IMG/VR virus record: IMGVR_UViG_2585427760_000003
Direction: 5' to 3' (one strand)
DNA length: 11,750 nt
Source: a virus
Taxonomy: Duplodnaviria; Heunggongvirae; Uroviricota; Caudoviricetes
Position 1 is the stretch's first letter. Each line of letters begins with the position of its first letter. The notes under the pieces were generated by a model. The model did no database searches. It saw only the letters and a list, made by a program, of their open reading frames with translations, and was not told the DNA's origin. The translations under genes were made by a program, and so were the position numbers. Below, one piece after another: positions 936-6,687 of this stretch.

Positions 936-1012
936 GCGCCCTTAGCTCAGTTGGATAGAGCAACGACCTTCTAAGTCGTGGGCCGCAGGTTCGAATCCTG
1001 CAGGGCGCGCCA
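936..1012 (+). tRNA. argU: tRNA-Arg (anticodon UCU)
   Basis: 77-nt cloverleaf GCGCCCTTAGCTCAGTTGGATAGAGCAACGACCTTCTAAGTCGTGGGCCGCAGGTTCGAATCCTGCAGGGCGCGCCA; acceptor stem GCGCCCT/AGGGCGC, anticodon loop CTTCTAA with TCT at 970-972, T-loop GTTCGAATC, 3' CCA. Confidence 0.95.
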
Positions 1013-1027
1013 TTACAATTCAATCAG

Positions 1028-2191
1028 TTACGCCTTCTTTATATCCTCCATAATTCCAGAGTGGGACATATTTGGGACATTATCACCAAAAATGTCGTCT
1101 ATTTTCCTCGCATGCTCTGTCAAATGATTAGGCGCAAGGTGAGCATACCTACGAACCATTTCTATGGACTCCCATCCGCCCATTTCCTGAAGCACTGATA
1201 ATGGGACGCCTGACTGAATCAGCCAGCTTGCCCAGGTGTGTCTGAGGTCATGGAAACGGAAATCTTCAATTCCTGCACGACGACAAGCTGATAGCCATGA
1301 TGTCTTGCTGTCGATGCGCATCTTCCTGACCGCAGGCGTTGATGTTCCATCTGCTCGCTTAGCCGCCTTGGTATGTACAAACACCCATTTGTGATGCTTG
1401 CCTATTTGATCACGCAACACTTTACAGGCGGTATCGTTCAGCGCCACACCAATGGCGCGGTTTGATTTGCTCTCTTCTGGATTCACCCAGGCAACTCGTC
1501 GCTGCATGTCGATTTGTTGCCATTCCAGATTTATGATGTTCGACTTTCTCAGACCAGTTGCCAGCGCAAACTTGACGACAGATTTCAGTGGTTCGGGGCA
1601 CTCATCAATAAGGCGTTTTGCTTCCTCCTTTTCCAGCCATCTGACTCGCTTGTTTCTGACCGCTGGTATCTTGATGACAGGCGCTTTTTCCAGCCACTTC
1701 CAGTCGCGTTCTGCAGCACGGAGAATGGCCTTTATCATGGCAAGATGCTTTGCCTTTGTCTGAGTTGATACTGGCTTTGGTTCATAAACAGGCAGTTCTT
1801 TACCTTTCCTGATGGCGGCCTGAACTTTCTGTTTCCATATTTCTTTCGTCTTTCTGTTATGCATTCTGCTTACAGCAGAGTAAATCTTTGCCTCCGAGAT
1901 ATCTTTAAGCCTTATACCCTCAAAATGTTCAAGCCAGAACTCAATCCGGCTTTTATCTGAATCGAGAGATTTTTTATCAGCTTTTTCCTCAAGCCATCTT
2001 AGGCAGGCCTCTTCAAAAGTGACATCAGGTAAATCCCCTAGCTTTTCTACTCGCCAGAGTTCTGCTTTTCGCTTGTCGTGCAACTCCTGAGCTTGCCGCT
2101 TGTCCTTTGTGCCAAGAGATTCCTTAATTCGTTTCCCGCCCGGGAGCGAATACGAGGCATACCATATTTCATTTCTGCGGAAGAGTGACAT
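1028..2191 (-). CDS. intD: Prophage integrase, tyrosine recombinase family (DLP12 IntD-like), 387 aa
   Basis: 387-aa minus-strand ORF immediately adjacent to the tRNA 3' end; C-terminal catalytic region with [11 protein letters not shown] and VRRYAHL (catalytic Tyr) motifs; N-terminus [35 protein letters not shown]. Confidence 0.93.
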
Positions 2192-3524: not shown

Positions 3525-3661
3525 TGTTTGAGTTTTATATGGCAGAACTTCTTCGCCACCGCTGGGGGCATCTGCGCTTATATCGTTTCCCCGGTTCTGT
3601 TTTGACCGATTACCGAATACTGAAGAGTTACGCCAAAACCCTGACAGGAGCAGGAGTATGA
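3521..3661 (+). CDS. ylcG: Small nin-region protein YlcG-like, 46 aa
   Basis: ATG overlaps the rusA stop (ATGA); translation [46 protein letters not shown]; below the 60-aa ORF-track cutoff, identified by hand translation and synteny between rusA and quuD. Confidence 0.75.
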
Positions 3662-3746
3662 AGTCAGAGATAACAATCAACTAATACTGTTTTGTTGATT
3701 TTTGCTTGTAATTGGCGTTTTGGTCTGATTTTTGTGGAGTAAGTTG

Positions 3747-4130
3747 ATGCGTGATATTCAGATGGTTCTTGAGCGTTGGGGAGCGTGGGCGGCTAATAAT
3801 CATGAAGATGTGACCTGGTCGTCCATTGCCGCCGGTTTTAAGGGATTAATTCCTTCAAAAGTAAAATCTCGCCCGCAATGTTGTGACGATGACGCGATGA
3901 TCATTTGCGGGTGCATGGCCCGTCTGAAAAAGAACAACAGCGATTTGCACGATTTATTAGTAGATTATTATATAGTCGGTATGACATTCATGTCACTGGC
4001 AGGTAAGCATTGCTGCTCTGATGGTTATATCGGGAAAAGGTTACAAAAGGCTGAGGGCATAATTGAAGGGATGTTAATGGCATTAGATATCCGGTTAGAG
4101 ATGGATATCGTTGTTAATAACTCTAATTAA
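3747..4130 (+). CDS. quuD: Late-gene antiterminator Q homolog (phage-82-type Q, DLP12 QuuD), 127 aa
   Basis: [67 protein letters not shown]...; ATG at 3747 with GGAG SD at 3736-3739; the ORF track starts at an upstream TTG (3732), which I consider less likely. Confidence 0.88.
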
Positions 4131-4150
4131 TACGCCAATTATTTACTAAA

Positions 4151-4181
4151 AGTTATTAAAAATGGGGCGTTGAAGCGCCCC
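4151..4181 (-). terminator. Rho-independent terminator on minus strand (GC-rich hairpin plus U-tract), likely ending the nmpC transcript
   Basis: GGGGCG (4164-4169) / CGCCCC (4176-4181) stem with 6-nt loop; on the minus strand it is followed by AUUUUUAAUAACU. On the plus strand it is followed by an A-run, so it is not a plus-strand terminator. Confidence 0.6.
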
Positions 4182-4318
4182 CAAAAATAAAGGGTAATAT
4201 ATAACAGAAGGTTTGTATAGTTAGAAGCAAGGTTGTGCTTCTAAAGGAAGTGGCTTGAGGGAGCCACTTATATGTTGGGGAGGCAAAGCCTCCCACAACA
4301 TATCTTTTAGTAATCAAA

Positions 4319-5401
4319 TTAGAACTGGTAAACCATACCTACAGCAACGATATCATCGGTAGCAACGCCAGATGCTTTCGTGAAATCGCTCTTATCAATC
4401 AGGTTGATTTTGTAGTCAACAAAAGTGGACATATTTTTGTTGAAGTAATAGGTTGCACCTACATCAACATATTCAACCAGGTCCTGATCACCCCAAACAC
4501 CCAAGTCTTTTCCTTTAGAATGCAGGTAAGCAACGGATGGACGCAGGCCGAAGTCGAACTGATATTGTGCAACAGCTTCGAAGTTTTGTGCTTTGTTGGC
4601 AATATGGTTATTACCAAAAACAGTCATGTTCTGGGTTTCAGAATAGGTGGTGGCCAGATAGATGTTGTTCGCATCATATTTCAGACCAGCTGCCCATACT
4701 TCAGCATTTTGACCAGAAGCATTCAGACCGTTGTTACCGTAGATAACCTGATTATTAGTGCGATCAGATTTAGCATAGGTTGCACCCACGCCGAATCCTT
4801 CATACTCATAAGTAGTTGAGAAACCGAAACCATCGCCATTAGCTTCAGTTACTTCATTTCGGTCATTTTTGCCCTGATACTGAGCTGCAAAGTTCAGGCC
4901 ATCAACCAGACCAAAGAAGTCGTTGTTACGATAAGTTGCAACACCTGTGGTGCGACCAGTCATGAACACATCTGTTTGGGTCCAGGTATCGCCACCGAAT
5001 TCTGGCAGAACGTCAGTCCACGCACCGATGTCGTATGCTACACCGTAGTTACGGCCGTAATCGATTGAGCCGTAGTCACCGAATTTCAGGCCAGCGAAGG
5101 CAAGACGGGTTTTATCTTTGGAGGAACCTTGAGATTCAGCGCGGTTGCCTTTGAATTCATATTCCCACTGACCGAAACCAGTCAGTTGATCGTTGATTTG
5201 GGTTTCACCTTTGAAGCCAAGACGGGCATAAGTAGTATCACCATCATCTGCATCATTAGAGGAGAAGTAGTGCTTAGCATTAACTTTCCCGTACAGATCC
5301 AGCTTGTTACTGTCTTTATTATAAATTTCAGCTGCCTGAGCAGACATCGCCATCAGTACTGATGCAGCTACAGCAGAAATTGCCACTGTTAATTTTTTCA
5401 T
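4319..5401 (-). CDS. nmpC: Outer-membrane general porin NmpC (OmpC/OmpF/PhoE family), apparently intact, 360 aa
   Basis: Signal peptide [23 protein letters not shown] then [16 protein letters not shown]; porin motifs throughout; C-terminal ...VGMVYQF typical of beta-barrel porins; placed on the opposite strand between Q and the lysis genes as in DLP12. Confidence 0.9.
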
Positions 5402-5829
5402 CGTGAGCCCTTTTTTTTGAACTATTATTAAAAAATGATGTCACTGCGCGATAAATATTCATCTAATCAATGTGATTATTTCAAGATGTAAGTTTTGGTT
5501 TCTCGTTTAATTTGTGAAGTAGATCTCTATTTTTATCTGAACTTTTTTCTATCGAATCCTATTCATGGCTCTTGGCTGAATAAAAATAAATCTATTAGCC
5601 AATTTATATTAATGGCTGTTATTTATAAGTGCTCTATAATTTGAAGGTTCAATTTAAATTGGCTAAAAATAACGCTGGAAATTATTTGTTGGTTATTTGT
5701 TGAGATTTTCTTATGTATTTGTAGTGGTGTTTTCAATACTCGGTAGCATTCTCGCAAATATCATTTAGTGGTTTACGTACGTAAAAAATTGGTTATGCTG
5801 TTAAGAGTGGTTACTTCGTTACACAGCTT

Positions 5830-5862
5830 AAACCCGCCGTCGAGCGGGTTTTTCCATTTTTT
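5830..5862 (+). terminator. Rho-independent terminator upstream of essD; candidate tR'-like terminator of a short late-promoter transcript
   Basis: AACCCGC (5831-5837) / GCGGGTT (5844-5850) stem, 6-nt loop, followed by TTTCCATTTTTT; sits ~110 bp upstream of the holin start. Confidence 0.55.
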
Positions 5863-5974
5863 GAGTCTCGATATTAGCTGATAACCCAATACCTGAGTTA
5901 TTCACTGACTCCGAGTCTGTTACGTTTCGTAGTATTCCCTCAATTTACACCCGCTTTGTCTGCGAGGTGGGGTT

Positions 5975-6190
5975 ATGAAATCCATGGATAAGTTAACAAC
6001 GGGTGTCGCCTATGGCACCTCAGCAGGTAGTGCCGGGTACTGGTTTTTACAGCTGCTCGATAAAGTCACGCCCTCACAGTGGGCAGCAATAGGTGTGCTG
6101 GGTAGCCTGGTATTTGGCCTGCTGACGTACCTGACAAACCTTTATTTCAAGATTAAAGAAGATAAGCGCAAGGCTGCGAGAGGTGAATAA
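5975..6190 (+). CDS. essD: Phage-21-type class II holin (pinholin S21 homolog) with dual-start motif, 71 aa
   Basis: [71 protein letters not shown]; two TM segments; Met1 and Met4 (5975 and 5984) give the holin/antiholin dual start; GAGGTGG SD upstream. Confidence 0.9.
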
Positions 6191-6687
6191 TGCCTCCATC
6201 ATTACGAAAAGCTGTTGCTGCTGCTATTGGTGGCGGGGCTATTGCTATAGCATCTGTGTTAATCACTGGCCCAAGTGGTAACGATGGTCTGGAAGGTGTG
6301 AGACATAATCCTTACAAAGACATAGTTGGTGTATGGACTGTATGTTACGGGCATACAGGAAAAGACATCATTCCCGGTAAAACGTATACCGAAGCAGAGT
6401 GCAAAGCCCTCCTGAATAAAGACCTTGCCACTGTCGCCAGACAAATTAACCGGTACATCAAAGTCGATATACCGGAAACAACGCGCGGCGCTCTTTACTC
6501 GTTCGTCTACAACGTGGGTGCTGGCAATTTCAGAACATCGACGCTTCTTCGCAAAATAAACCAGGGTGATATTAAAGGCGCATGTGATCAGCTACGGCGC
6601 TGGACATACGCTGGCGGTAATCAATGGAAAGGACTGATGACTCGCCGTGAGATTGAGCGTGAAGTCTGTTTGTGGGGGAAACAATGA
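6190..6687 (+). CDS. rrrD: SAR endolysin (T4-lysozyme-like muramidase with N-terminal signal-anchor-release domain), 165 aa
   Basis: N-terminal Gly/Ala-rich hydrophobic SAR segment [20 protein letters not shown] followed by lysozyme catalytic region [23 protein letters not shown]; start overlaps the essD stop (TAATG). Confidence 0.9.

Follow-up and report, generated by a model that had tools for sequence, protein, structure and literature searches.

Translation of ompF and ompC is blocked by the antisense small RNAs MicF and MicC, each of which is encoded by a separate gene with a promoter of its own and requires Hfq. IpeX, a small RNA of DLP12 and PA-2, was first described by Castillo-Keller, Vuong and Misra in 2006 (J Bacteriol 188:576), who reportedly found that OmpA was not lowered on IpeX expression. 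In reviews, it is a 167-nt RNA that is made within the porin transcript and represses both OmpC and OmpF, and EcoCyc counts it among the small RNAs of E. coli. PMC12197685 states that the RNA of about 167 nt is processed from the porin transcript and that it does not pair with ompC or ompF. PMC3617542 (repression "does not involve base-pairing") and PMC10690425 ("No complementary sequences exist") likewise deny pairing with the targets; all three papers cite the original work. The literature disagrees on Hfq dependence; PMC8313858 describes IpeX as Hfq-independent, and the supplement of the same paper lists ipeX in MG1655 on strand R at 574365–574531 (167 nt).

We analysed a cluster of four hairpins in the window, by which we mean the whole stretch of viral DNA under study (11,750 nucleotides, IMG/VR record IMGVR_UViG_2585427760_000003). 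With a probability of about 0.9, the cluster is the known small RNA IpeX, encoded on the minus strand in the 3'UTR of nmpC and processed from the porin transcript, with an unpaired linker as the proposed antisense seed for ompC. The element is not new but a natural allele of ipeX. As a genome feature it is ordinary: the small RNA has been known since 2006, and this allele of it is well conserved.

IpeX resembles the 3'UTR-derived small RNAs CpxQ, SdhX, SroC, MicL, MalH, and GlnZ in sharing the terminator of the parental mRNA, in being released by processing, and in carrying a conserved unpaired seed upstream of the terminator. It differs from them in being prophage-borne, in having three large hairpins 5' of the seed, and in its short 5-U tail. 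The mode of action predicted for IpeX, in which an unpaired stretch covers the Shine-Dalgarno region in the mRNA of a major porin, is that of MicF and MicC. However, IpeX has no sequence homology to either, is a 3'UTR, is reported to be Hfq-independent for ompC, and has a pairing that is predicted. StxS, the short PR'-tR' transcript of Stx phages, likewise arises as a small RNA by-product where lambdoid prophages carry Q and the late genes. A stretch homologous to its PR'/tR' region occurs in the window at 5772–5857, but StxS differs from IpeX in locus, strand, and sequence, and this stretch lies outside the hairpin cluster.

IpeX in the quuD–nmpC spacer

The hairpin cluster lies between two convergent genes, an arrangement that the initial annotation had recognized correctly. 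The gene quuD (3747–4130, plus strand) matches the Pfam family Phage_antitermQ (E = 1.1e-53) and is annotated as such in RefSeq for identical DNA; its product is 78–81% identical to the Q proteins of Stx phages. The opposing gene (4319–5401, minus strand) is an nmpC/lc-type porin gene of 360 aa that matches Pfam Porin_1 over its full length (E = 3.6e-152). Whereas the nmpC copy of K-12 is interrupted by IS5 (NC_000913.3), the parental porin gene in the window is intact, and therefore IpeX can be made from the nmpC promoter. The spacer between quuD and nmpC is 188 bp long and contains all four inverted repeats. The promoter scan found no sigma-70-like promoter on either strand of the spacer.

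In MG1655 (NC_000913.3), the nmpC stop codon is at 574529–574531 and quuD ends at 574339; the listed ipeX interval begins at the nmpC stop codon and finishes 26 nt from quuD. Transferring these limits through the alignment places IpeX and the nmpC 3'UTR at 4156–4321 on the minus strand of the window (166 nt). The 5' end in the MG1655 listing, the first base of the nmpC stop codon, is probably nominal. The interval to which attention had first been drawn, 4151–4303, falls almost wholly inside IpeX. The MG1655 locus (L001, 3310–3551) is 95.0% identical to window positions 4100–4340 over 242 columns, and the sequence 3' of lc in PA-2 (J02580.1, L002) is 94.7–95% identical to the window. The window thus shares with IpeX of DLP12/PA-2 the locus (nmpC/lc stop codon to quuD), the strand, the length, the terminator, and a 95% identical sequence. 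The window allele departs from K-12 IpeX by roughly twelve substitutions and a single indel, most of which fall in loops, in the bulge, or in the 5' tail.

The RefSeq record of MG1655 carries no ipeX annotation and leaves the quuD–nmpC spacer unnamed. In Rfam, no family reaches E ≤ 1 in 3600–6200, and no IpeX-named family is matched. Because both RefSeq/PGAP and Rfam miss IpeX, scans will keep rediscovering it. No ipeX, quuD, or nmpC entries were found in the supplements of an E. coli 3'-end mapping paper (PMC7815308) or in those of the REP paper.

All four inverted repeats are found where the initial annotation had placed them, at 4164–4181, 4221–4244, 4248–4269, and 4270–4303. From its 5' end, the minus-strand RNA starts with an AU-rich segment (UAAUUUGAUUACUAAAAG, 4304–4321) that contains the stop codon of nmpC and stays unpaired in the centroid fold; this segment is the presumed cleavage site at which the small RNA is freed from the porin mRNA. 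Hairpin 1 (4270–4303) had been described as an imperfect stem of 15 bp located 16 nt from the nmpC stop codon. The stem is present, with 8 + 7 bp and one bulged base (U or C), but its distance to the stop codon (4319–4321) is 15 nt; the sequence CTTTT follows on the plus strand directly past 4303, as had been noted. Hairpin 2 (4248–4269, AAGTGGCT/AGCCACTT) and hairpin 3 (4221–4244, TTAGAAGCA/TGCTTCTAA) are perfect stems of 8 and 9 bp, respectively, in both the fold and the inverted-repeat check.

Hairpin 3 is separated from the terminator hairpin by an unpaired, U/A-rich linker of 39 nt (4182–4220, minus strand). The proposed seed within the linker (4184–4214) is unpaired in both the MFE and the centroid folds and is nearly invariant in 28 variants. 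nmpC and IpeX have a Rho-independent terminator in common (4154–4181, minus strand), at which the RNA ends. This terminator consists of a GGGGCG/CGCCCC hairpin with a 6-bp G+C stem and a 6-nt loop (4164–4181) and the tail AUUUUUAAUA. The U-tract attributed to the minus strand is confirmed by the terminator scan, in which the hairpin is read from 4181 to 4164 and is followed by ATTTTTAATA. UUUAUUUUU precedes the terminator hairpin, where an Hfq module would have a U-rich stretch, but the tail AUUUUUAA has just five U, fewer than would be expected of a classical Hfq-dependent small RNA.

The cluster folds far more stably than shuffled sequence, with z about −7.9. The minus-strand RNA from 4321 to 4150 has a folding energy of −57.4 kcal/mol, compared with −29.5 ± 3.6 kcal/mol in dinucleotide shuffles (z = −7.85), and none of 200 shuffles folds as well. 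The complementary plus strand of the cluster folds equally well (z = −7.95).

Conservation and transcription of the spacer

Of 5426 complete E. coli genomes, 2503 (~46%) carry the spacer at 90–100% identity, always between quuD and a porin gene and at a median of one place per genome. It is also present in 36 phage records, among them PA-2, where it lies downstream of lc. The chromosomal OmpD/NmpC-like porin genes of Citrobacter, Salmonella, and Enterobacter show no 3'UTR homology to the IpeX region, which leaves no distant homologues for comparison. Since the OmpD-like genes of other genera are without this UTR, the element belongs to the phage porin cassette. An apparent porin-less context (H30) proved to be an IS5-associated deletion.

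The initial annotation had proposed covariation across homologous loci as a check on the fold, for which 120 viral contigs and phage and genome loci served as the source. A total of 122 homologous copies, drawn from collections of phages, viral contigs, and genomes, collapse to 34 distinct sequences over a 241-bp interval and to 28 distinct variants of the RNA region; the IMG/VR variants L188, L199, L145, L182, and L092 look error-prone. Across the 28 variants, 98.1% of pair cells are still paired. In hairpin 1, 97.6% of cells pair, the common T/C difference sits in the bulge, and the closing pair changes from C-G to U-A in E. albertii. In hairpin 2 and hairpin 3, 96.4% and 99.2% of cells pair, respectively; the changes in hairpin 3 are mainly in the loop, with one stem pair broken in two variants. 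The terminator stem (4164–4181) is invariant in 28 of 28 variants, the linker is as invariant as the stems, and the other changes are mostly in loops. Both sides change at only two pairs, one of them in an apparently error-prone contig. The variation is compatible with the fold, but the variants are too alike (96% mean column identity), and some contigs too error-prone, to prove it.

Three roles had been put forward for the cluster: a bidirectional terminator array that insulates the porin gene from Q-driven transcription, a 3'UTR element, and a small RNA. The last two hold together, the nmpC 3'UTR being the published IpeX, and the terminator array does not. On the plus strand, hairpin 4164–4181 is followed by CAAAAATAAA, which contains no U-tract, and the scan calls a terminator on the minus strand only. 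Insulation fails because, seen from the spacer, the late promoter and terminator are past nmpC, at ~5772–5857. In VT2-Sakai, the late promoter PR' lies in the sequence after Q, according to the StxS paper, and StxS lies there too. This post-Q sequence is homologous to window positions 5771–5853 (76% for the stretch 5772–5857), which are separated from quuD by nmpC, rather than to the quuD–nmpC spacer.

The late-promoter module between nmpC and essD (5772–5857, plus strand) consists of conserved promoter-like hexamers (TTTACG-17-TATGCT), then TAAGAGTGGTTAC, and then a strong terminator (5830–5851, plus strand) with a T-run. The stretch homologous to the post-Q sequence includes conserved GTTTACG and TAAGAGTGGTTAC motifs. 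The position of this homology beyond nmpC suggests that an nmpC–ipeX cassette has been inserted between Q and PR'. It also means that Q-modified polymerase never crosses the spacer, because transcription from the Q-dependent promoter starts downstream of nmpC and heads away from it, and the hairpins therefore cannot shield the porin gene from it. A short StxS-like transcript may be made at 5772–5857.

If the hairpins were mainly terminators of the two convergent genes, 4164–4181 would serve nmpC and 4270–4303 with its CUUUU would serve quuD, and collision and antisense read-through would be avoided. The convergent arrangement and the minus-strand terminator call agree with such a role, as does the strong plus-strand hairpin 4270–4303, which is followed by CTTTT here and by CTTTTT in the K-12 type; read-through from quuD into the spacer could be weakly stopped there. 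However, the scan accepts no terminator on the plus strand of the spacer, 4164–4181 is without a plus-strand U-tract and hence not bidirectional, and the two middle hairpins are without terminator features. Moreover, Q-driven late transcription begins beyond nmpC, and the published trans effect on OmpC would be left unexplained. We therefore regard termination as unlikely to be the main function; termination of the convergent genes may be an additional role of IpeX rather than an alternative to it. Far less probable is that the hairpins lack any action in trans and form only a passive 3'UTR element that stabilizes the nmpC transcript, or a cluster of REP-like palindromes. The 3'UTR position fits such an element, and a REP-prediction tool flags ipeX as REP-containing. 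Nevertheless, the published accounts of multicopy genetics give the sequence a trans effect and report that OmpC is lowered by the RNA alone for the K-12 copy. The sequence is restricted to one prophage locus, unlike dispersed REPs, and conservation of the linker to the level of the stems is not required of a pure stabilizer. Least credible of all is a small protein, the probability of which we consider negligible. A 53-codon ORF with a TTG start does exist at 4156–4317 (minus strand), and some phage records label similar stretches "hypothetical protein" or "ORF1". This reading was rejected for its lack of a Pfam match; in addition, the ORF has no evident ribosome-binding site, its frame traverses four stable hairpins, and natural variants carry single-base indels.

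Complementarity of the IpeX linker to the ompC leader

The IpeX linker is complementary to the translation start region of ompC. Window positions 4199–4213 in IpeX (AACCUUCUGUUAUAU) can form a helix of 15 contiguous pairs, one of them G·U, with positions −21 to −7 of MG1655 ompC (AUAUAACAGAGGGUU), and positions 4185–4193 (CCUUUAUUU) can form a second helix of 9 pairs with positions −31 to −23 (AAAUAAAGG). Together, the 15 + 9 bp span the ompC leader from −32 to −6 and cover the Shine-Dalgarno sequence GAGGG. The linker is thus a predicted seed: unpaired, conserved, and able to pair where translation of the target begins.

The complementarity was assessed with duplexes of the linker alone, statistics on the longest run, and cofolding. 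With the ompC leader, IpeX has a longest complementary run of 15 bp, a length that 7 of 1000 shuffled IpeX sequences also attain; the linker–ompC duplex has an energy of −26.4 kcal/mol, which 2 of 1000 shuffled linkers match. In the controls, 55 annotated K-12 translation start regions give a mean of −13.3 ± 2.8 kcal/mol and a best value of −20.9, whereas the best values among 2122 K-12 windows and 8624 windows of enterobacterial DNA are −22.5 and −26.2, respectively. The value for ompC is therefore not reached in the 55 start regions or in the 10,746 genomic windows, null sets that cover about 0.5 Mb, less than a whole genome. When full-length IpeX is cofolded with ompC from −81 to +30, the four hairpins are kept and two intermolecular helices are added, with a gain of 21 kcal/mol over the separate folds.

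For other genes, weak pairing of the linker is predicted with ompF and none with ompA. The energy with ompF is −18.8 kcal/mol, which lies in about the top 4–5% of K-12 start regions and windows and includes a 10-bp run on the Shine-Dalgarno sequence. The energies with ompA and with the leader of the prophage's own nmpC are −11.4 and −14.6 kcal/mol, respectively. The order ompC > ompF >> ompA matches the reported target specificity.

Both partners are well conserved. In 5359 of 5371 E. coli genomes, the ompC leader shows 99% identity or more, and the seed is invariant across the IpeX variants except for one change in E. albertii, which converts a C-G pair of helix B to U·G. The duplex energies of other alleles with ompC are −26.7 kcal/mol for K-12 and Lambda_4C10 and −23.7 kcal/mol for E. 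albertii. In other genera, ompC-type leaders retain the core GGCAUAUAACAGAGGGUUA and pair with the linker, whereas OmpD/NmpC-type leaders do not.

We lean towards the reading that pairing between the linker and ompC contributes to OmpC repression, in which case IpeX would act as an ordinary antisense small RNA that occludes the Shine-Dalgarno sequence of ompC and, more weakly, that of ompF. It is also possible, although somewhat less likely, that IpeX is present but acts without base pairing, for example by protein titration or through an indirect effect on the ompC mRNA, and that the complementarity is functionless. That pairing is absent is what PMC3617542, PMC10690425, and PMC12197685 state, and the Hfq independence given in PMC8313858 is in line with it. 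On the other hand, a duplex of 15 + 9 bp exactly on the ompC Shine-Dalgarno sequence, unmatched in the 55 start regions and more than 10,000 control windows, would have to be without consequence. It would also have to fall by coincidence in the sole long unpaired and invariant part of IpeX, and the ranking of ompC, ompF, and ompA would have to follow the reported specificity by coincidence as well. Uninterrupted Watson-Crick pairing extends over at most 10 nt, one short of the default BLAST word of 11, so that a similarity search could overlook such complementarity, which may explain why it was missed. Hfq independence of ompC repression would also be explained by a 24-bp duplex. IpeX is cited as unusual for needing no base pairing, and the complementarity with ompC makes that claim simply testable. 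The complementarity found here is a testable correction of the mechanism; it does not make the element itself new.

In the antisense mechanism that we propose, a transcript from the nmpC promoter would cross the porin gene and stop at the G+C hairpin 4164–4181 and its U-tract, as predicted from the sequence. A tail of ~166 nt would be cut from the porin mRNA; such processing is published, and the cut would presumably fall close to the stop codon, within the AU-rich segment, which would leave the three hairpins as the stable 5' body of the processed RNA. The linker is predicted to act as the antisense seed, forming 15 + 9 bp with the ompC leader, covering its Shine-Dalgarno sequence, and blocking ribosome binding. 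The shorter match of 10 bp over the ompF Shine-Dalgarno sequence would have a weaker effect, and the leader of the phage porin, not being complementary, would escape.

A lysogen would in this way swap host OmpC for the phage porin. OmpC is the receptor of PA-2, so that replacement of OmpC would exclude superinfection. Should the pairing prove real, IpeX would be the third antisense RNA against porins after MicF and MicC, and the porin gene would be a clear example of a phage gene that silences, through its 3'UTR, the host gene which its coding part replaces. Phage receptor exclusion and porin-dependent antibiotic entry are the contexts in which the pairing, if it holds, is relevant.

The plus strand of the linker (4183–4222) itself resembles an ompC-type porin leader, with AAATAAAGG..ATATAACAGAAGGTT in the window corresponding to AAATAAAGGCATATAACAGAGGGTT in ompC. 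Judging from this resemblance, the antisense seed may be an inverted fragment of an ompC-type porin leader that was captured in the 3'UTR of the phage porin gene, which would be a possible evolutionary source.

Prophage context

Several further features are located in and around quuD. A near-consensus sigma-70 promoter-like sequence (GTGACA-18-TATAAT, 11/12) lies antisense inside quuD at 3996–3967 (minus strand), a position that recalls the paQ antisense promoter in lambda Q. At the 3' end of quuD, a terminator-like hairpin (GATATC...GATATC) is located on the plus strand at 4086–4109. An AT-rich 20-nt inverted repeat (4111–4130 and 4143–4162, 80% complementary) spans the quuD stop codon.

In E. 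coli 14EC007 (L212), the quuD–ipeX–nmpC junction is 100% identical to that in the window, but nmpC is followed by a different lysis cassette, which comprises a DNA methyltransferase, a lambda-type holin, and a GH24 lysin. The difference in lysis cassette indicates that the porin–IpeX module travels between different lambdoid backbones.

On the other side of quuD, the window contains tRNA-Arg(UCU), which is argU (936–1012, plus strand), followed by a 387-codon ORF (1028–2191, minus strand) at the place where, we presume, the DLP12 integrase gene would be. The combination of argU and this ORF looks like the DLP12 attachment site. Only ~1.5 kb separate the 387-codon ORF from quuD, and most of the early region of K-12 DLP12 is missing. 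At the gathering score, the only Rfam matches in the whole window are the tRNA and IS009, both outside the hairpin region. The IS009 match (RF02111; 11149–11347, plus strand) is full-length, with 229.5 bits and E = 5.7e-57, and represents a candidate small RNA family.
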